A stretch of 64,000 nt of DNA from Methanoregula sp. (lineage in GTDB: Archaea; Halobacteriota; Methanomicrobia; Methanomicrobiales; Methanospirillaceae): contig JBDKTL010000048.1 in the NCBI GenBank assembly GCA_039698055.1, positions 32,001 to 96,000 of the forward strand. The letters are read 5' to 3'. Made by a program: the position numbers and the translations under genes. This document shows positions 6,681 to 54,853 of this stretch, in pieces. The first letter of the stretch is position 1, and each line of letters begins with the position of its first letter. The notes under the pieces are model-generated. The model saw only the letters and a list, made by a program, of their open reading frames with translations. It searched no databases and was not told the DNA's origin.

Positions 6681-8665
6681 GCGGCTGCGGGGATTGCAAA
6701 GGCTGCCCTAAAGGAGGAGATTCCGGCATAAAGAATGCGGATTACACCATTGCCCTTGCCGGCAATGCCAATGTTGGCAAGAGCGTGATCTTCAACCAGC
6801 TGACCGGTGTTGACCAGATCATCGGCAACTGGCCAGGGAAGACCGTTGAGCGGGCAGAAGGGCTCCTGCTGTACAAGGGAAAACGCATCCGGGTCATCGA
6901 CCTGCCCGGCATCTACTCATTCTCCACGTACTCGATGGAGGAACTGGTCTCCCGGGATTTTATCGCGCTCGAACATCCTGATGCCGTTATCAACGTGATC
7001 GATGCCTCAGCGCTGGAACGCAATCTCTTCTTTACGATCCAGCTCATGGAACTGGCACCCCCGCTCCTTATCGCGGTCAACCAGATCGATCTGGCCGAAA
7101 AAAAAGGGTTGACCATCGATACCGGGAAACTCGCGGCACTGCTCGGTGTCCCGGTCATTCCGACCATTGCCATACGGGGCAAGGGAATCCCGGCCCTCAC
7201 AGAAGCAATTACGGGTCTCATGCCGGGCCACCCGGTCCCACCGGTCATTTACTATGGAAAGGAAGTAGAAGAGCGGATTGGAAAAATTATTGCCCTGCTC
7301 GCGAGCGTAACAACACCGTACCCTGTCCGCTGGACTGCGATCAAACTGCTCGAGCGCGATCCGTCAATCATGAAGATGGTTGGCGAACATGACCCGGGCA
7401 TCGTAAAAAACGCAGGAGTTCTTGCCGGTGAAATTGAATCCATCCACGGCGAAGCGGTCTGCGTTGTCATGAGCGCGGAGCGGTACCAGGTTGCCGACCG
7501 GATCGCAGCTGAAGTGATCACCGTGCGTCCGCCGGGCGAAGGCCCGCAGAAAAAGAGCCTGACCGACAGGCTCGACGCGGTTGCCCTCCACCCGGTAATC
7601 GGGTACCTCGCGGTCATTGCCGTAATCGGCGGGTTGCTGGTATGGACATTTTTGATCGGCGCACAGATTTCAGAGATCCTTGCTGGTTTCCTCTCACAGT
7701 TCGAACAGTACGAACCGGTGATCACGGGCCCGCTCATGGACATTCTCTGGAACGGGGCCTTCACCGGTTTTGTAGCAGGAGTGACCCTGGTTATCCCGTA
7801 TGTCCTGCCGTTTTACCTGCTCCTTGCGGTCATGGAAGATTCAGGGTATCTCACCCGGATCGCGGTGATGCTCGATCGCGGCATGCACAAACTGGGCCTG
7901 CACGGCAAGGCGATCATCCCTTTGATCCTTGGATACGGGTGCAATGTTCCTGCAATCTATTCATGCCGGATCATGGAAACGCCAAAACAAAAGACCCTTG
8001 CCGCATTCTTAGTGACGCTTGTTCCCTGCACGGCACGGACGGTAGTCATCCTTGGCCTCGTCGCTGCGTTTGTCAACATCTGGTGGGCGCTCGCGCTCTA
8101 CGTATTCAATATTCTCCTGATTCTCATTGTCGGGAGATTTGCGTTCAAGGCAGTGCCGGGCGAGTCTGTCGGGCTCATCATGGAGATGCCGGACTATCAC
8201 GTACCGTCGCTTTCGGTCGTGCTGAAACAGACATGGGCCCGGACAAAGTCGCTGGTCTGGATCGTCTTCCCGGCGTACATCATCGGGAGTGCATTGATCC
8301 AGGCGTTCTATGCGGCCGGCCTGCTGAACCCGGTGAACGATCTTCTTTCTCCCGTTACCGTGCTCTGGCTCGGGCTGCCCGCGGTTGTTGGGATCACGCT
8401 GATCTTCGGGGTCGTGCGAAAGGAGCTGACAATCCTTACGCTTGCCGTGATCTTCCACACGACTAACTTTGCGGCGATCATGTCCCCGGTCCAGCTCGTG
8501 GTCCTTGCACTGGTATCGATGCTTTATATTCCCTGCATCTCGGTGATACTGGTGCTCGCATCGGAGTTCGGCTGGAAAAAAGCACTCGCGATATCGGCTT
8601 TTGAAGTCATCATGGCAATTGTCATCGGCGGGATCGCATTCCGGGTGCTGGGCCTGGTGATGTGA
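6677..8665 (+). CDS. feoB: Ferrous iron transporter FeoB (copy 1)
   Basis: [47 protein letters not shown]. Confidence 0.95.
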
Positions 8666-47549: not shown

Positions 47550-48908
47550 TCACACCCTGCTTTTGATCTGCTTTTTCTGCCGCATCGCCTGATCATGTCC
47601 CGGGTTGAGCGCAAGCACCCGGTCATATGCCGCGATCGCATCGGTATCCCGCTGGACTTTTTTCAGGATAAAACCTTTATAGAGCCATGCTTCGACGGAT
47701 TTTTCGTCAAGCGCGGTTGCACGGTCGCACGCGGCGATAGCCTCTTCGAATTCTCCCAGCATGACGAGATTCTTGGCGCAGCTTATCCAGGCGCCGGGGT
47801 TTTTGGGAGCGATCGCAAGCGACCGTTCATAGGCAGACAGCGACTCGTCATATATCCCGGATTTTTTCTTCGCATCGCCAAGAGCCCGCCACACATCGGC
47901 ATTGCCGCTGTTGATGCCGAGATATCGTTCAAACGAACCGGCTGCTTCCCGGTATCTCCCGGTCTTCATGTAGAGATGCCCAAGGATATGCCAGCGGTCC
48001 GGGTCCGTGACCGTATCCGGGATCTGTTCCAGTTCGCGGATCATCTCTTCGTACGAACTGCCCGGTGACACGTGAACTGACGGGACAGGAACCGGTTCTT
48101 CCGTTGCCGGAGACATCCGTGACGGATGGTCCTGCACAACCGGGTTCACGCGATCCGGCACGGCCGGAGGAATGTTTTTTGCAGCCGATGCAATCGGGGC
48201 AGGTGCCGGTTTCCCGTCATGGGTTCCCGGTGATGCCGGTACAGGTACCGGGCGTTCAGGAACAACCACCGGGTAAGAAGACGGGGATTTTTGGGCCACG
48301 GGCACAGGAGCCGGAACCGGCAGGCTGGTGGCAGGTTGCGGGGATCTTGGATCTGGTGTGACAGGGAGATCTTCTTTGGGATGTTTGACGAGAGGTTTGT
48401 CCTTAGTGCCGGCCTGGTACCGTTTTCTTGCAACGCTGATGCCGGTGAGGGCATCCATATGTTTTGGATCAAGGCTCAGGACTTTTTCGTACGCGAGGAT
48501 CGCCTCGTCATACTTTTCCTGGATGGCAAGGGTAAGTCCTTTGGCATACCATGCCTTGATGAAATCGGGATGGATGGCAAGTGCCCGGTCATAAAGTGCA
48601 AGCGCGAGGGAATATTTACCATATGTTAAATAAATGAGGCCCTTGTAAACAAGCGCATCAGGAAGATCGGGATCGATACCAAGCGCCCGGTCGAAATATT
48701 GCAGCGCCTCGTCAAAGGACCCGATCTGGTACAGGGCATAGCCTTTCAGCTGCGAGGCCCGGGGGCGTCCGGGCTCGATGGCGGCAACTTTGTCAAGGAT
48801 CTCCAGGGCATCGGCATAATATCCCTTGCGGCAGAAGGCTTCTGCCCGGAGGTACATGGACTCCGGATCCATCGCCGGATTCTTCAGGATTGTTTCAAAG
48901 ATACCCAT
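47550..48908 (-). CDS. TPR-repeat protein with central Pro-rich linker
   Basis: Repeated W..KG..L...G.Y.EA...Y..AL.IDP. Confidence 0.9.
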   Translation of the reverse strand: MGIFETILKNPAMDPESMYLRAEAFCRKGYYADALEILDKVAAIEPGRPRASQLKGYALYQIGSFDEALQYFDRALGIDPDLPDALVYKGLIYLTYGKYSLALALYDRALAIHPDFIKAWYAKGLTLAIQEKYDEAILAYEKVLSLDPKHMDALTGISVARKRYQAGTKDKPLVKHPKEDLPVTPDPRSPQPATSLPVPAPVPVAQKSPSSYPVVVPERPVPVPASPGTHDGKPAPAPIASAAKNIPPAVPDRVNPVVQDHPSRMSPATEEPVPVPSVHVSPGSSYEEMIRELEQIPDTVTDPDRWHILGHLYMKTGRYREAAGSFERYLGINSGNADVWRALGDAKKKSGIYDESLSAYERSLAIAPKNPGAWISCAKNLVMLGEFEEAIAACDRATALDEKSVEAWLYKGFILKKVQRDTDAIAAYDRVLALNPGHDQAMRQKKQIKSRV

Positions 48909-49616
48909 AAAAACCTCACCCGGGCATTCCTGATCGGTTCACCTGTTTTTTTCTCTGACGGTTCCCCGGGTTTGCCGGCCTTGAATGTTTCTTCTCGTTA
49001 CGATGAGTCGTTCCATGCAGGATGCCCGGCAGTGTCCAACTATCGGGTCTCCACATACGCTGTACCTCGTTACCTGCATACTCATGTTCAACAGTATATA
49101 GAATAGCATCCCTATAATATAGTTTTTCAATTTGTTCTCTATATACATTGGATTTATAAAAATATTTTTCCGGTTTACACTGTGCCGCAGGAGTTGGATG
49201 TGGTTACCGAAGATTGGCGTGGCTTGGACAAATGAACAGGAAACTTTTCCCGCACGGCAATGCCCGGGTTTTCCCGGATCGCTTCGTCTCATCAAATCAA
49301 TATTTTCAAAACAATTATATAGAGATTGTGCCAAGTCTATTGTGTCGCTTTTTCGAAAAAACCAGGGGGCCGACTCCCGGACCATTCCAGGTCGTGCGCC
49401 CCCGCCCGCAGTGAAACCTCCCATCCACGAGAAAAATCCTGCCGGCAGGTGGGATGGCAAAGGTTTGCCGGTATCGTGGCTGCCCCTGTTCATCCGGACC
49501 GGCAGTCTCTTCCTTGTCCCAAAATGCATCAGCACGCTGTACGGGATGCCCGTGAAAAAATTATTCCGGAATACTACCAGTTCCCCGTGTCGTGAGGATG
49601 ACACAGGATAAAAGCC

Positions 49617-50402
49617 ATGAACGTCGATTTCCACGTTCACACCAACCGGTCCGTTGACGGCGTCCACAGCCCCCGGGCGATGGTGAAATGTGCACGGGCC
49701 GCCGGGCTCGACGCCATCGCTATCACAGATCACAACCGGCTCTTTCCCTGGATCGAGGCACAACGGCTCGCAAAAGAGTTCGGGGTTCTCGTGATCCCGG
49801 GCATCGAGGGAGGGGATATTGCCATCCAGAAACACTGGCTCGCGCTTGGCATTATGGTGCCGCCAGCCGGATGGGCAATCAAAAGCGTCCTGCGCCGCAT
49901 CAGGAACCAGGGCGGGCTTTGCGTTGCCCCCCACCCGCACACACGCCTTGGCTATGGCAACTATGCCGCGCTCGGCTTTGACGCAGTCGAATCCCTCAAT
50001 GGCGCGGAGCCGGGTTCCAACCGGCAGGTCAGGAACGTTACCCATATCCCGGAAGTAGCCGGCAGCGATGCCCATGCAGGCCCGATGCTTGGGACAGTAT
50101 GGACTGAAGTTGATGCGGAAGGCACGGCAGAGGACGTCCTTGAAGCAGTGCGCCACGGGCGGTGCACCCCGGCCGGAACGACCATCCCCGGACGGGATAT
50201 TCTCAACTATTATTACCTCTACGCCGTGCACCGCGTAATCCTCAGCCCGCTGGACGCTTTTGCGTCCCTGCGACTGGTCATCAGGAATATGAAAAAAGCA
50301 CATGCGATCGAAACATCGCGCTCCAACCGTTTACCGCAAGAAGTACCAGGTGATTCACATTCATTCAGATGCAGTCCCGCAGATCCACTGGATTGGCATT
50401 GA
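49617..50402 (+). CDS. PHP-family phosphoesterase
   Basis: DFHVHT..S.DG, AITDHN, GIE, PHP, AVESLN, GSDAH. Confidence 0.9.
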   Translation: MNVDFHVHTNRSVDGVHSPRAMVKCARAAGLDAIAITDHNRLFPWIEAQRLAKEFGVLVIPGIEGGDIAIQKHWLALGIMVPPAGWAIKSVLRRIRNQGGLCVAPHPHTRLGYGNYAALGFDAVESLNGAEPGSNRQVRNVTHIPEVAGSDAHAGPMLGTVWTEVDAEGTAEDVLEAVRHGRCTPAGTTIPGRDILNYYYLYAVHRVILSPLDAFASLRLVIRNMKKAHAIETSRSNRLPQEVPGDSHSFRCSPADPLDWH

Positions 50403-51150
50403 TCTCAACACCACCGGCTATGCCGTTGTCGTTGCCGATCCCGCCACCGGCCATGTACTGAAACTGGGAAAACAACCGTCCCGCATCCCGGGCCGGACAT
50501 GCACGAACTGTACGAAACTGTACAGGGAAGGAAAGATGTGGAAATTAAAAAAGATGAAAACAAGGGAACGCAAGAATTTCCGGTCCACGCTCAATACCAT
50601 CGTCTGGCAGATTGTTTCCTTTGCAGAATCTTCGTGCGCCGGCATCAAGTTCGAAAAACTTTTCAGCCACCATTACCCGGGCCGGAAAAAGGAGATTGGA
50701 GAATATGAATTCTCGTTCCAGAACACCTCGTTTCCCCACCTGCTGCGGCTCGTGGAGAAACATGCATCGGACCGGGGGATCCCGGTCGATTACGTGAACC
50801 CGAACAACACATCGAAAATCTGCAGCCGGTGCGGGGGCCTCGGGCGCCGGGTGCGCAAGCGGTTCGAATGCCCCCACTGCGGTGCGGTTGTCCACGCGGA
50901 CGTGAATGCGGCATTCAATATCGCGGCAACTCCTGTCTTTACCAGCAAGGTTGAGGCAGAGCGCATAAAATCCCTCAAAAAGCAGATGCGGAGGCTTGCA
51001 CGCCAGGAGCGGGCCCGGGCCGGTATGCCGCTGCAGGAGGGCGTTTTGGTCGCCCCGTCAGAACTGCCTGCCCGCTGGGACATGACGGGCACATGGGCGG
51101 CGAGATTGGGAGAGGGTTTGCCGGCGACTGCAACGGGCTCGCGACCATGA
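50302..51150 (+). CDS. N-terminally truncated TnpB/Cas12f-like RuvC + Zn-ribbon protein
   Basis: RuvC-I GIDLN (D34), RuvC-II IKFEKL (E118), VNPNNTSKICSRC..FECPHC, RuvC-III HADVNAAFNIA (D200). Confidence 0.85.
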   Translation: MRSKHRAPTVYRKKYQVIHIHSDAVPQIHWIGIDLNTTGYAVVVADPATGHVLKLGKQPSRIPGRTCTNCTKLYREGKMWKLKKMKTRERKNFRSTLNTIVWQIVSFAESSCAGIKFEKLFSHHYPGRKKEIGEYEFSFQNTSFPHLLRLVEKHASDRGIPVDYVNPNNTSKICSRCGGLGRRVRKRFECPHCGAVVHADVNAAFNIAATPVFTSKVEAERIKSLKKQMRRLARQERARAGMPLQEGVLVAPSELPARWDMTGTWAARLGEGLPATATGSRP

Positions 51151-51419
51151 TTCTCGAAGTGGTGACCATCACGGTGACCTGCCCCCACTGCACGCAGAGG
51201 TTTACCAAAAAGGTCTGGTTCCCGATTCACCGGGCGCTTGAAGACCCTGCCTGCATGCAGGCTGACGAATGGGTCATGGCAACCTGCCCGGCATGCGGAT
51301 GCACGTCATGCATCAGTGTACAGGCAGGCACCGCCAGGAAAAAAACCGGGACCGGGGGTTGTCCCGTCACACTGCACGAACGATCCGGGCTGCCCGCTGA
51401 CAGCGAGGACCTCGGTTGA
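51147..51419 (+). CDS. Small Cys-rich zinc-finger-like protein (90 aa)
   Basis: CPHC...CPACGC; ATG overlaps the TnpB-like stop (ATGA). Confidence 0.55.
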   Translation: MILEVVTITVTCPHCTQRFTKKVWFPIHRALEDPACMQADEWVMATCPACGCTSCISVQAGTARKKTGTGGCPVTLHERSGLPADSEDLG

Positions 51420-51597
51420 GAAAGAAACGATGACGGGAGTAACGGATCGGGCAAACATTTTTTTTATCTGCACCGTTTGCAAAAATCCCACAATTCTACA
51501 ACAATCTTTTTTAATTCCGGTATAAAAATGAAGCCGCATCTCAAAAAGTTGGGCTCATACCAAAAATATATGACTGCAAACGTTCCATGAACTGGAT

Positions 51598-52056
51598 ATG
51601 CGGGCGGAAAGCGAGATCGATCTCTCGCCGCGAAAGGCTGCGTACGTCAAATACCTGTACGAGCAGGGGGGCCGGGTGAGGACGACAGATATTGCCGCAC
51701 GGTTTGTTGTCGATCCATCCACGATCACAAAAACGGTTGCGGAACTCGCGGAGACCGGCCTTATCGCGCACGAACCGTACCGGGGCATCTTTCTGACCGA
51801 GAAGGGAAAACGGCACGCCGGATACCTCGTCAAGCGCCACCGGATCCTGAGCCTGATGCTCACGCATTACGGGCTTACCCCCGAACAGGCATGCGAAGAA
51901 GCGGCGCGGTTCGAAAGCCTCGTATCCCGGGACACCATCGACCGGGTCTGCGCCGCGATGGGACACCCGCGCCTTGGGGTCTGCGGCGAGATCACCCACG
52001 ACGACGGCTGCATGAATCATGTAAAAAAGAGCAGGAAGGCAGAGGGTAAACCATGA
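51598..52056 (+). CDS. DtxR-family metal-dependent regulator (third copy)
   Basis: HTH VDPSTITK, PYRG..LT, KRHRIL, EAARFES, GHP..GVCG. Confidence 0.85.
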   Translation: MRAESEIDLSPRKAAYVKYLYEQGGRVRTTDIAARFVVDPSTITKTVAELAETGLIAHEPYRGIFLTEKGKRHAGYLVKRHRILSLMLTHYGLTPEQACEEAARFESLVSRDTIDRVCAAMGHPRLGVCGEITHDDGCMNHVKKSRKAEGKP

Positions 52057-52084
52057 TCCTGCCTGCACAGGCCAGGTGGCGGTT

Positions 52085-52897
52085 ATGAGCCGGGCGATGG
52101 TCTCTGAACATATACCGGATCTTGACCTGATCACGTTCTATGCAGAGAAACACCGGTCCCCGTTTTCAGAAGTGAGCCCGTGGACAAAAATTGCGCTGCT
52201 GTTCCTCATCATCACACTTATCACAGTCACCCGGAACATGGCACTGCTCGTTGCCACCTACGCGATCGTACTGGGTTGTTTTGCCTGTGCAGGATTGCCG
52301 GTAAAAAAACTTTTTTACTGGTATACCATCCCCATGATCTTTGTCGTATCGCTGGTGGGAATCATGATCTGGAGCGAACCGGGAGTTCCCCTGTTTACCC
52401 TTCCCCTGCCCGGGTTCCCGCTCACCCTGACCGACCAGGGACTCATTCTCATCGTGACCCTGGTGGTCAAGGCCCTCATTTCCATCACGTACTCGATTTT
52501 TATTCTTATGACCACCCGGTACGAATATCTATCAGGAGTTATTTCCCGGGTATTTCCCTCCCCGCTCGACCAGATCTTTCTTATGGCCTACCGGTTCCTC
52601 TTCCTCACGCTGGCAATGACCGGCCAGATCATCAAGGCGTTCCGCTCGCGGGGCGGCGGGGTCATTGCAAGCATCAGGACGCAGTGGAGAATGTTTGCCG
52701 GGATATTCGGCCTTGTCTTTATCCGCTCCTTTGAACGGGCCGAACGGGTAAACAAGGCGATGCAGGCCCGGGGATTCAACGGAATCTACTCGACAAATGC
52801 CACGATTCCGGCCCCGGGATTTGGAGGATATGCCATGCTTCTCTTCCTGTCCATCTTTGTAGTCGCGATCGCGATCCAGTCCAACAACCTGTGGTGA
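52085..52897 (+). CDS. Ni/Co ECF T component (CbiQ/NikQ)
   Basis: SPWTKI, MTT, YRFLF, SRGG, RSFERAERV..AM.ARGF. Confidence 0.85.
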   Translation: MSRAMVSEHIPDLDLITFYAEKHRSPFSEVSPWTKIALLFLIITLITVTRNMALLVATYAIVLGCFACAGLPVKKLFYWYTIPMIFVVSLVGIMIWSEPGVPLFTLPLPGFPLTLTDQGLILIVTLVVKALISITYSIFILMTTRYEYLSGVISRVFPSPLDQIFLMAYRFLFLTLAMTGQIIKAFRSRGGGVIASIRTQWRMFAGIFGLVFIRSFERAERVNKAMQARGFNGIYSTNATIPAPGFGGYAMLLFLSIFVVAIAIQSNNLW

Positions 52898-52901
52898 AAA
52901 T

Positions 52902-53783
52902 ATGACGACCAGTGCAGATGCAGACGATTCAATATACCGGTGCCATACCGGTACCCATACGGATGAACTGATTCACGTGGACTGTGCAAGCCATACCTAT
53001 CCCGACGGCAGTGTCGGCATCCACGAGATGTGTTTCTATGTTTTAAAAAAGGAGATCGTGGTGCTGTGCGGAATAAACGGTGCCGGCAAATCCACGCTGA
53101 TCGAACACTTAAACGGCTTGCTGACCCCGTCGCTGGGGCGGGTGATCGTAAGCGGGCAGGATATTACCAAAGGGGCCAACCGGACCCTCTGGAAAGAGGT
53201 CGGCGTCGTATTCCAAAGTTCCGACGACCAGCTCTTTGCCCCGACCGTGCTTGACGATGTCATGTTCGGGCCGCTCAACCTGGGTATGACAAAAATGGAG
53301 GCAGAAACCACCGCCAGAAATGCCCTCGAAGCGGTCCGGGCCGCAGATCTTGTCGGGAAACTTCCGGATTACTTAAGCGGCGGCCAGAAGCGTTTGATCT
53401 CTATTGCCGGTATCCTTGCCATGAAACCACAGATCATCGCGATGGACGAACCGACATCAGACCTCGATCCGGTGCACGCGGAAACCGTTGAACGGCTGAT
53501 ACGGAGTTTCCGCGACGAATCGGGCATCAGTATCGTGATTGCAACCCATGACCTCGATTTTGCTGCACGGATTGCAGACCGGGTCTGCCTTGTCAAAAAC
53601 GGTTCGGTCTTTGCAGAAGGTACACCGGCAGATATTTTTTACAACGACAATCTCATCAGGCAGGCAGGGCTCAGGGCTCCCCAGATCGTACGGATATACC
53701 AGGAGTACTGCCGGGCAAAAGGCATCGTGCCGGACAAGCGCCCGGTAAGCCTTGAAGAACTGATACCCGCCATGATCGGCTGA
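52902..53783 (+). CDS. Ni/Co ECF ATPase (CbiO/NikO)
   Basis: GINGAGKS, DDQLFAPTV.DDV.FGP, LSGGQKR, DEPT, THD. Confidence 0.88.
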   Translation: MTTSADADDSIYRCHTGTHTDELIHVDCASHTYPDGSVGIHEMCFYVLKKEIVVLCGINGAGKSTLIEHLNGLLTPSLGRVIVSGQDITKGANRTLWKEVGVVFQSSDDQLFAPTVLDDVMFGPLNLGMTKMEAETTARNALEAVRAADLVGKLPDYLSGGQKRLISIAGILAMKPQIIAMDEPTSDLDPVHAETVERLIRSFRDESGISIVIATHDLDFAARIADRVCLVKNGSVFAEGTPADIFYNDNLIRQAGLRAPQIVRIYQEYCRAKGIVPDKRPVSLEELIPAMIG

Positions 53784-53933
53784 TGCAGCACATTTTTTTC
53801 GCAGGCAAAAGAAACGATCCGGGATTTTTGGGGAGACTCCAACTTCTTCAGAGTATTTTTATCCCGGTTCGTCCAACCACATCTTTGAAATCGCACCATC
53901 TTTGATTAAATTCGGGGATTGGGGAGTCGTGGC

Positions 53934-54575
53934 ATGGCACATATACATCTCGAAGATGGTTCATTTACCCTGTTCTGGGTTCTTGCCTGGTGGATTATCG
54001 CACTGGTGCTTATCGGCATTATCCTTTTCTGGCTTCGTTTGGTTAAAAAAACGGATAACCGGATGATCACGATTGCGGCATTTTGTACTGCTGCATCATT
54101 TGCAATTTTCCAGGTAAGCATCCCCATCGCCGGGGGCGTGCACATGAACCTGACGCCGTTGATCGGCATCCTGACCGGGCCGTTTGTCGGTGGCCTGATT
54201 ATTTTTATCGTCAATATTTTGTCTGCTGCCATCGGTCACGGCGGCTGGGGCATGATCGGCGCAAACACGCTGGTCAATGCAACGGAAGTGGTGGCCGCAT
54301 ATCTCATCTACCGGGGATTGAAATCGGCGGGTGTCGGCACGTTCTCCCGGACTGGTATTGCCACGATCGCCGCGCTGTTCATCGGGAACCTCGTGATGAT
54401 GGGAATTATCATCTTGTCCGGTATCCAGGGTTCGAGCCTGACAGCCGATCAGACGTTGGGGGGATTGTCCCTTCTTGTTGCCGTGAACATGGCAGTCGCT
54501 GTTGTCGAAGCCGTGGTGACCGCATTCATCGTCACCTATATTGAACGGCGCCGGCCCGATATGCTGGGGGCGTAG
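53934..54575 (+). CDS. Ni/Co ECF S component (CbiM/NikM)
   Basis: MAHIHLEDG N-terminus, GGVHMNL, GHGG...GAN. Confidence 0.85.
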   Translation: MAHIHLEDGSFTLFWVLAWWIIALVLIGIILFWLRLVKKTDNRMITIAAFCTAASFAIFQVSIPIAGGVHMNLTPLIGILTGPFVGGLIIFIVNILSAAIGHGGWGMIGANTLVNATEVVAAYLIYRGLKSAGVGTFSRTGIATIAALFIGNLVMMGIIILSGIQGSSLTADQTLGGLSLLVAVNMAVAVVEAVVTAFIVTYIERRRPDMLGA

Positions 54576-54577
54576 TC

Positions 54578-54853
54578 ATGGCAATCGAAAAAGAGACCGG
54601 GGGCAAAATCCTGTTTGCCGCACTTATCGTCATTTTCCTGGCATGCGCCATTCTTGCCTATACACAAACCGGGCCCATGGACATCGAGGGCCGGTTCATG
54701 CATGCGGTCGGGCTTGAAGATGCGGGTTCGTCACCCGGTGAAGACGCAGGGGAGCCCGGGTTCTCCCTTGAAGGAAACCCGGTCGCGTACATCATTATTT
54801 TCCTCATCCTCATTGCCGTATGCTGGATTGCGTACCGGCGTTTCAGGCCATGA
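54578..54853 (+). CDS. Small 2-TM ECF accessory protein (CbiN/NikN-like position)
   Basis: Two TMs flanking an acidic loop; directly after the S component. Confidence 0.6.
   Translation: MAIEKETGGKILFAALIVIFLACAILAYTQTGPMDIEGRFMHAVGLEDAGSSPGEDAGEPGFSLEGNPVAYIIIFLILIAVCWIAYRRFRP

Follow-up and report, generated by a model that had tools for sequence, protein, structure and literature searches.

TnpB is the ancestor of Cas12, and the domestication of TnpB is an active field of research. In TnpB and Cas12f the lobe built from the WED and REC domains holds the guide RNA and reads the target-adjacent motif (TAM). To our knowledge, the characterised domesticated forms (Cas12, TldR and sigma-linked dCas12f) all retain this RNA-guided lobe, and an intact RuvC domain without a guide-binding lobe has been mentioned only briefly, for two groups of archaea. 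A 2023 census (Altae-Tran et al. 2023, PNAS, PMC10691335) describes a non-mobile, RuvC-only TnpB branch of the Halobacteria with proteins of about 220 amino acids, e.g. WP_004214924.1, and a GATase-TnpB of about 280 amino acids in Sulfolobaceae, for which RNA-independent nuclease action was suggested. Here we analyze a stretch of 64,000 nucleotides of Methanoregula sp. DNA (assembly GCA_039698055.1, contig JBDKTL010000048.1, positions 32,001 to 96,000; hereafter the window), which encodes a "headless" TnpB-like protein between the genes of a PHP phosphoesterase and a small zinc-ribbon protein. This open reading frame (ORF) of 282 amino acids descends from a compact archaeal TnpB; it is domesticated and non-mobile and comprises only the catalytically intact RuvC domain with its TNB zinc ribbon.

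The nuclease resembles the haloarchaeal branch in being very short, made of RuvC alone, predicted to be active, fixed and non-mobile, and it differs in its host order and in its PHP and zinc-ribbon partners (PMC10691335). Outside the host order a profile search at E ≤ 1e-25, sampling 401 genomes of the phylum, returned only full-length frames of 328-489 amino acids, some of them multi-copy; the methanogen and haloarchaeal RuvC-only branches are probably separate truncations. With GATase-TnpB, as described in the census, the nuclease shares small size, immobility, intact catalytic residues, a place beside a host enzyme gene and the lack of room for a downstream RNA gene, whereas GATase-TnpB retains the wedge and adjoins a glutamine amidotransferase, and the methanogen protein is without a wedge and has PHP and zinc-ribbon partners. 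Like TldR, sigma-TnpB and flagellin-TnpB (PMC10705468, PMC10691335) it is a host-domesticated, immobilised TnpB; TldRs keep the guide-binding lobe and lose RuvC catalysis, so that the headless family represents the opposite reduction. RuvC-only TnpBs as a kind were already in print in 2023, and the methanogen clade is a separate, well-defined one with new partners. PHP, a phosphoesterase, a zinc-ribbon partner, a fusion, Methanoregula and Methanomicrobiales do not appear in the main text of the census or in one of its supplement files. Our literature search found no paper joining TnpB with a PHP domain, only engineered truncations and TldR papers on the subject of truncated TnpB, and no functional study of a RuvC-alone or RNA-independent TnpB beyond the census itself.

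The kinship with TnpB is evident from both sequence profiles and the predicted structure. The nuclease matches Pfam Cas12f1-like_TNB (PF07282) with an E-value of 1.4e-20 and 73.6 bits (cut-off 26.3), while the NCBIfam model guided_TnpB (NF040570) is covered only at positions 188-388 of 389, with 77 bits and thus under its cut-off of 100. PADLOC likewise reported only the last third of the Cas12f, Cas12u and Cas12b profiles, i.e. the RuvC half, plus a weak PHP match. An AlphaFold2 model based on a 53-sequence alignment reached a mean predicted local distance difference test score (pLDDT) of 72.2, and Foldseek placed it next to Cas12f (8dzj_A, E 4e-9) and TnpB (8h1j_A, 1.6e-5). In VIA-align, residues 17-213 of the model correspond to residues 212-414 of AsCas12f (Z 18.1) and to residues 185-376 of ISDra2 TnpB (Z 13.9); for comparison, bacterial RuvC gave Z 11.5-11.8. 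In common with ISDra2 TnpB (8h1j) and Cas12f (8j1j, 8dzj), to which it is 22-28% identical over 152-166 aligned residues (Z 13.9-18.1), the protein has a RuvC fold with a D-E-D triad split by the TNB zinc ribbon. In contrast to these enzymes the model contains no counterpart of the WED or REC domains, the structure alignment beginning at TnpB residue 185, and no omega-RNA or CRISPR array, insertion sequence (IS) ends, transposase or multi-copy spread were found. Past RuvC-III the model continues with a basic helix (216-239), which is followed by a low-confidence tail.

A first-pass annotation, made from the letters of the window alone, had stated that the three RuvC catalytic residues and the zinc ribbon are kept. 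The alignment of 53 relatives agrees: E118, D200, C174, C177, C190 and C193 are invariant, and at least 90% of the sequences have D34. The same alignment does not support the extra CTNC motif proposed there, since only its second cysteine (C70) is conserved (at least 90%) and is not a zinc site. The tail past D200 spans 82 residues and includes the basic helix. Direct reading confirmed the ATG at 50302 as a start of the frame; most orthologues, however, begin at a V/M that matches the GTG at 50350, 13 residues ahead of the RuvC-I strand, and a GTG start stands behind a purine-rich stretch in 9 of 9 loci of the stand-alone lineage (lineage B, see below). Of the two candidates the GTG therefore appears the more likely start, which would give a nuclease of about 266 residues. 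The described overlap with the PHP gene persists in either case, but its length of 101 bp would shrink to 53 nucleotides. Among the 22 best-scoring fetched loci (L001-L022; G, L, C and P numbers are our handles for genomes, loci, contigs and proteins), all headless-type and belonging to families f1, f4 and f5 of the order, the stop-to-stop frame leaves merely 13-41 residues ahead of RuvC-I in 16, and the spacing from RuvC-I to RuvC-III is constant in all 22 at 168 residues.

A protein search with the nuclease yielded 420 proteins at E ≤ 0.001. The lengths of the best 120 range from 227 to 475 residues and their identities with the query from 53 to 67%, most of them carrying PF07282 alone; the source names of the matches were "putative transposase", "IS605 OrfB family transposase" and "zinc ribbon domain-containing protein [Methanoregula sp.]". 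Searching 1.84 billion representatives with a profile, we obtained 12,093 matches at E ≤ 0.001, of which 88 reached E ≤ 1e-30; headless proteins ranked first, ahead of compact full-length TnpBs of 330-370 residues in which RuvC-I lies at about residue 130. In a tree of 91 rows computed from the RuvC-TNB core (careful IQ-TREE search), 34 headless rows, proteins of about 250 residues, fell on one side of a branch with a support of 96/87, the bootstrap being not fully settled, and a branch with 100/100 united the 18 rows from the genus and family of the window. Two of the 34 had carried the label "full" at first, but low-complexity read-through accounts for their N-terminal frames. A further 11 "headless" rows were scattered among full-length TnpBs and look like fragments or separate truncations. 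Judged from this tree, the headless family has a single origin inside this methanogen order, where it occurs in at least three families. At E ≤ 1e-10 matches were present in 53 of 151 genomes of the order, a count that includes full-length TnpBs, and in 11 of 12 genomes of the window's genus. The nearest full-length relatives are compact TnpBs with frames of 335-369 residues at four places of G039:C1 and six places of G181:C1, which are presumably active as IS elements. Short frames of 199-231 residues were observed in another family of the order (L023 in G118, L025 in G095, L027 in G058); they have a RuvC-I to RuvC-III spacing of 157-163 residues and a short C-terminus and may be fragments or an independent headless form.

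The headless gene occurs in 1-2 copies per genome. The window's own genome holds one further copy on contig C30, 59% identical to that of the window, which stands alone, flanked by genes for a DUF2070 membrane protein and an ion channel in the vicinity of GatE and PfkB, and belongs to lineage B. Eight species, including one from a second genus, have an orthologue at this DUF2070/ion-channel site, and up to nine upstream genes are common to them at 43-90% identity. A ninth species, G081, carries a frameshifted copy at the same site (L051, C1, about 8001-8449), and in G106 (L211, C3) the site is empty, the neighbors being about 200 nucleotides apart. G110, a member of another family, retains the ion-channel neighbor of the headless gene, and in G051 and G021 the gene has a different common neighbor. 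The copy of the window belongs to lineage A, which forms one branch (support 97/89); whether lineage A is nested in lineage B or sister to it was not distinguished by the approximately unbiased test (p 0.449).

Pairwise dN/dS values (omega) were determined after Nei and Gojobori (NG86). With most pairs saturated (dS >1), values of 0.12-0.26 were obtained for lineage B (26 of 28 pairs, two having an undefined dS) and of 0.09-0.25 for lineage A (10 of 10 pairs); the least saturated pairs gave omega 0.17 at dS 0.54, 0.15 at 0.65, 0.13 at 0.88 and 0.21 at 0.89. Both lineages are evidently under purifying selection, and the relaxed dN/dS expected of a decaying gene is not observed. Furthermore, neither OrfB_IS605 (PF01385) nor Y1_Tnp (PF01797) had a single match in the window's own genome (93% complete), although both were detected in the controls. 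A tblastn search of the window with 12 N-terminal halves of the nearest full-length TnpBs produced chance matches only, the best with an E-value of 0.07 and none near the locus, and around the locus no IS-like repeats were present, only short, imperfect ones at chance level. This agrees with the first-pass annotation, in which no tnpA or IS end was recognised, and the missing N-terminal half was not detected nearby (tblastn, PF01385) as a sign of recent truncation. The headless family is inherited vertically at fixed chromosomal sites under purifying selection. Taken together, the supported clade, the synteny across eight species, the low omega and the absence of IS features make the proposal of an exapted, immobile gene, rather than a decaying IS, well supported.

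As outlined in Table 1, the nuclease gene of the window is part of an operon; the ORF list and direct reading bore out the three predicted ORFs with an intact PHP gene upstream and an ATGA-coupled CxxC..CxxC protein downstream.

Table 1. Features of the headless nuclease operon in the window and of the encoded nuclease (residue numbers refer to the 282-residue ORF).
Feature	Position	Strand	Description and basis
Conserved promoter-like block	49308..49352	+	alignments of 5 and 13 loci
Leader	49353..49616	+	about 265 nucleotides, conserved block to PHP start
PHP-family metal-dependent phosphoesterase	49617..50402	+	261 amino acids; Pfam, NCBIfam, alignment
Headless TnpB-like nuclease ORF	50302..51150	+	282 amino acids; ORF list, Pfam, NCBIfam, alignment, AlphaFold2, direct reading
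Nuclease parts			RuvC-I D34; helical/hairpin insert 56-110; RuvC-II E118; zinc ribbon; RuvC-III D200
Nuclease TNB zinc ribbon			C174, C177, C190, C193, between RuvC-II and RuvC-III
Nuclease C-terminal part			basic helix 216-239, then variable tail with degenerate terminal peptide SELPARWD
Small zinc-ribbon protein (CPxC...CPxC)	51147..51419	+	90 amino acids; ATGA-coupled to nuclease

In order to count the partner genes, lineage-A loci were taken from genomes and from 8 true metagenome loci; L084 and L095 are not independent, since they nearly duplicate G139 and G076. The metagenome loci came from a scan with a 17-nucleotide motif, in which 118 stretches were found and 80 fetched, 72 of them being chance matches. 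A PHP gene lies upstream of the nuclease in 6 of the 10 loci whose upstream side is visible (window, G143, G139, G076, L084, L095) and is absent from G119, L086, L112 and L062. The zinc-ribbon gene follows 0-40 nucleotides downstream of the nuclease in 7 of 9 complete loci and is absent or degraded in G076 and L095. The window, G143, G139 and one metagenome contig carry all three genes, and the gene order of G143 and G139 is PhoU/AbrB regulator, PHP, nuclease, zinc ribbon and CHASE4 histidine kinase; G119 has the same neighbors and the zinc-ribbon gene without PHP, and G076 has PHP and nuclease with the zinc-ribbon gene reduced to a remnant of 22 codons. Neither partner gene was found at lineage B or at the copies of other families, where most members of the family stand alone. 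The trio is thus real and recurrent as an elaboration of one lineage, in which nuclease and zinc-ribbon protein form the more constant core. Accordingly, the proposed three-gene system holds as an arrangement recurring in one sub-lineage of one genus, but not as a general one, given the counts for both partners and the stand-alone copies elsewhere.

The PHP protein matches Pfam PHP (3.2e-13) and PHP_C (4.8e-12) and scored 80.5 bits against the NCBIfam CehA/McbA model (cut-off 80). Its metal motifs HxH, DH, E, H, H and DxH are invariant among the covering sequences (n=7), HxH being present in 6 of the 7 since P0015 begins past it. The protein thereby resembles PHP phosphoesterases of the PF02811/PF13263 type (3e0f, 2anu, 2yb1) with intact metal motifs, and its size and domain order are those of the stand-alone PHP proteins of the order with about 228 residues. 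It is a second paralogue, distinct from the housekeeping PHP of about 228 residues that occurs in 145 of 151 genomes of the order: the two are only about 40% identical, and the operon type adjoins, and is sometimes fused with, the headless nuclease. One copy of the housekeeping paralogue is located at G000:C16:104469-105062. Linked-type PHP genes (49-63% identical) without nuclease, zinc ribbon or motif were present in G111, G027, G084 and G053. The stop codon was read directly at 50400-50402; the homology with orthologues ends at about residue 237 (about 50327), and the remaining ORF overlaps the nuclease gene. PHP_C and TNB are joined in one ORF in 2 of the 120 best matches (P0008, 440 residues; P0015, 475 residues), and P0015 is a clean in-frame fusion of PHP and nuclease, which begins inside PHP at a contig end. 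A search for longer fused forms (495-2000 residues) found none, which is weak evidence. A programmed frameshift from PHP into the nuclease was considered and rejected, because the A-AAA-AAG at 50291-50298 would give a -1 shift and the nuclease lies in frame +1 relative to PHP. On the opposite strand an open frame of 454 residues (48939-50303, -) runs antisense to the PHP gene and the leader; its tblastn matches in relatives occur only where they mirror PHP, and the frame is most likely spurious, as judged from the GC-rich coding DNA in which it lies.

The start of the zinc-ribbon gene had originally been set to 51093 (an ORF of 108 residues). Alignment with 19 homologues places it at the internal ATG at 51147 instead, and direct reading shows that this ATG forms an ATGA junction with the nuclease stop TGA at 51148-51150. 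The family comprises 17 clusters at E ≤ 1e-22 with 63-90 residues (relatives 63-80), all named "hypothetical protein" and assigned to Methanoregula wherever an organism is named, and shows the invariant pattern V..CP.C...P...E..D..V...CP.C; the window's protein is the most divergent member. No Pfam family matched it at cut-off, and the ESM Atlas returned only unnamed clusters (0.90-0.91). The idea that it represents the split-off N-terminal half lost from TnpB was discarded on an hhalign probability of 0.15%, and no CxxC occurs in the first 130 or so residues of the nearest full-length TnpBs.

The region upstream of the operon was analyzed for regulatory and RNA elements. An A-rich/TATA-like stretch (aattatatag, 49314-49323) is followed 13 nucleotides on by tctattgtgtcgc (49336-49348), and this 13-nucleotide block is invariant upstream of all lineage-A operons and has a single occurrence in its own genome. 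It covers the expected archaeal transcription start, so that its position suggests a promoter or operator role, and it may be the operator for a regulator. The block was also seen at L032 (7043), L033 (7012), L034 (7005) and L035 (8921, minus strand). In three genomes a regulator with AbrB and PhoU domains is the upstream neighbor of the lineage-A operon. The lineage-A leader is 227-281 nucleotides long and measures about 263 nucleotides where PHP is absent and the nuclease follows directly. RNAalifold found no conserved structure in it (-2.9 kcal/mol, 8 sequences), and an E-value scan of positions 48500-52000 against Rfam returned no match. The lineage-B leader is about 100 nucleotides long with small conserved blocks, and no pairs were predicted for it (n=9). 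On the 3' side of headless genes the next gene overlaps or begins within 0-44 nucleotides; in lineage B only 44 nucleotides separate the nuclease stop from the next gene, and the 3' part of the coding sequence is variable. A small ORF in the leader was dismissed, as the translations after the conserved block are not conserved, and a structured or guide RNA in the leader found no support in the above folding energy in lineage A, the missing pairs in lineage B and the empty Rfam scan. Three short metatranscriptome contigs from two studies match the PHP, nuclease and zinc-ribbon genes with at least 98.5% identity, none of the three extending over the leader; they are a weak sign of expression, as carry-over of DNA is possible. 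All in all, these data are neither positive evidence for an omega-RNA nor proof of its absence.

The C-terminus of the nuclease shows a pattern of its own. Lineage-B proteins end, after a variable linker, in ...C.EN[IL]LAVLE, a motif found at the extreme end of 21 of the 120 best matches. The tails of lineage A read ...SCHREMLSRWDD.P.IPGE, also given as ...DLSCHREMLSRWDD.P.IPGE-like, and distant members of the headless clade terminate in NIFCTLE, LFSLLDDD or SFSLLF; the window's own peptide is degenerate. In the AlphaFold2 model of the stand-alone paralogue (pLDDT 74.0) the last 26 residues (226-251) scored below 50 and form only a terminal helix of four residues, a low-confidence tail that would fit a free docking peptide. 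Such conservation at the very end of the protein, following a disordered linker, is suggestive of a docking motif. The form x-E-x-[LI]-x-x-[W/L] may resemble a degenerate PCNA-interacting motif.

With regard to its surroundings, the operon of the window has a TPR gene on one side and, on the other, a DtxR-type regulator with a CbiMNQO transporter. In five relatives that have the DtxR-CbiQ-CbiO cluster, no PHP, nuclease, zinc-ribbon or TPR gene was found upstream of it; this comparison indicates that the window's operon has another location, not the route by which it came there. The cluster at 51598-54853, conserved in the five relatives, encodes a DtxR/iron-dependent-repressor regulator (152 residues), followed by CbiQ, an ABC ATPase, CbiM and a small membrane protein, and constitutes a metal (cobalt/nickel-type) uptake cluster of the energy-coupling factor type. 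The TPR protein of the window (47550-48908, -) has a long Pro-rich linker, and in G127 (L048, C4 1-7700) the headless nuclease gene adjoins a very long TPR-like repeat array.

We lean, with somewhat better than even confidence, towards a guide-less, metal-dependent nuclease that is directed by proteins and has acquired zinc-ribbon and PHP partners in one lineage. The enzyme would act without using an omega-RNA in the manner of TnpB and would contact its substrate via the basic C-terminal helix, while protein partners binding the conserved extreme C-terminal peptide would provide targeting or control. In lineage A the translationally coupled zinc-ribbon protein would serve as a nucleic-acid-binding or regulatory subunit, and the PHP protein, at times fused, would trim ends made or encountered by the nuclease or remove their phosphates, so that the operon would form a small nucleic-acid processing or repair module. 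Joint action of PHP and nuclease is suggested because in-frame fusions exist.

Several observations weigh against this picture. Nuclease activity, DNA or RNA as the substrate and independence from a guide are all read from domain content, and an RNA encoded in trans or in an unrecognised form is possible; lineage A has the promoter block and the leader of about 260 nucleotides. The operon-type PHP occurs alone in four other genomes and is missing from 4 of the 10 lineage-A loci, and is therefore not obligatory. The headless gene is dispensable in some species, as shown by the frameshift in G081 and the empty site in G106. Finally, the nuclease and the zinc-ribbon protein of the window diverge furthest within their lineages (end branch 0.44-0.46; 25-37% identity), and the window copy is located at a different, non-syntenic site.

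Among the alternatives, the boldest, though unlikely in itself, describes a protein-targeted housekeeping nuclease whose conserved terminal peptide would dock onto a replication or repair hub. The enzyme would then be a guide-less repair or replication-restart factor, to which a zinc-ribbon subunit and PHP as an end-cleaning enzyme would have been added in one lineage, at times joined in a single polypeptide.

An RNA-processing pair, in which the RuvC site cuts RNA and PHP acts as an exoribonuclease or nucleotide phosphatase like TrpH/RNase AM, comes next and must likewise be called doubtful. RuvC sites of TnpB and of some Cas12 proteins do cut their own guide precursors. The closest solved relatives of the PHP protein by sequence are TrpH-like (3e0f, 4.5e-7; 2yb1, 8.6e-4), in NCBIfam, nucleoside bisphosphate phosphatase and RNase RNM were matched weakly and only in part, and the loci lie amid housekeeping genes such as GatE and PfkB. 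The NCBIfam matches, however, all stay under the equivalog cut-offs, and beside neither lineage did Rfam or RNAalifold detect an RNA gene or a conserved RNA target.

The third alternative, which we consider improbable and place behind the two preceding ones, retains RNA guidance: the RuvC/TNB core with the basic helix, perhaps with the zinc ribbon in place of WED/REC, would use a guide from the leader or from elsewhere. It draws on the invariant 13-nucleotide block and a leader of about 260 nucleotides, whose length is kept in lineage A even without PHP, and on the closest relatives of the family, which are active-looking, multi-copy full-length TnpBs; besides, the C-terminal region of TnpB contacts the omega-RNA. 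Yet the leaders of both lineages are devoid of conserved structure, Rfam is silent, and lineage B, with its variable 3' coding part, leaves hardly any space before the next gene. The zinc-ribbon protein, moreover, is unlike the N-terminal half of the nearest TnpBs and is absent from lineage B.

Less probable still is a toxin-antitoxin or defence module in which the coupled zinc-ribbon protein would restrain a guide-less nuclease toxin. The tight gene pair with its ATGA overlap and the non-syntenic site of the window copy would be in line with such a module, and the census (PMC10691335) proposes a toxin role for another archaeal TnpB paired with a small DNA-binding protein. Nevertheless, most members of the family lack a small neighboring gene, the gene is passed on vertically and in synteny instead of being patchily distributed, PADLOC gave only Cas12 profiles over the RuvC half and the weak PHP match, and the neighbors are housekeeping or signalling genes, not defence genes.

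A decaying IS, of which the ORF would be a recently truncated tnpB pseudogene with a frame left open by chance, could be argued from the transposase names of its relatives and the frameshifted copy in one species, but is so improbable that we regard it as refuted as far as sequence evidence reaches: truncation point and GTG start are identical across the clade, omega is low, synteny extends across species and genera, catalytic and zinc residues are invariant, and N-terminal half, transposase and IS ends were all not found.

The headless family offers a tractable case of a TnpB nuclease that has lost its guide-binding lobe, with one origin, two paralogous lineages, strong purifying selection, a conserved putative docking peptide and natural partners, which, including the in-frame PHP fusions, hint at what the nuclease works with. 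Identification of the substrate would reveal the abilities of a bare TnpB RuvC domain. If the protein-targeted alternative were true, a former transposon nuclease would have been turned into a guide-less repair or replication-restart enzyme. More generally, the family could lead to a nucleic-acid processing or repair activity that has so far gone unnoticed in methanogens.

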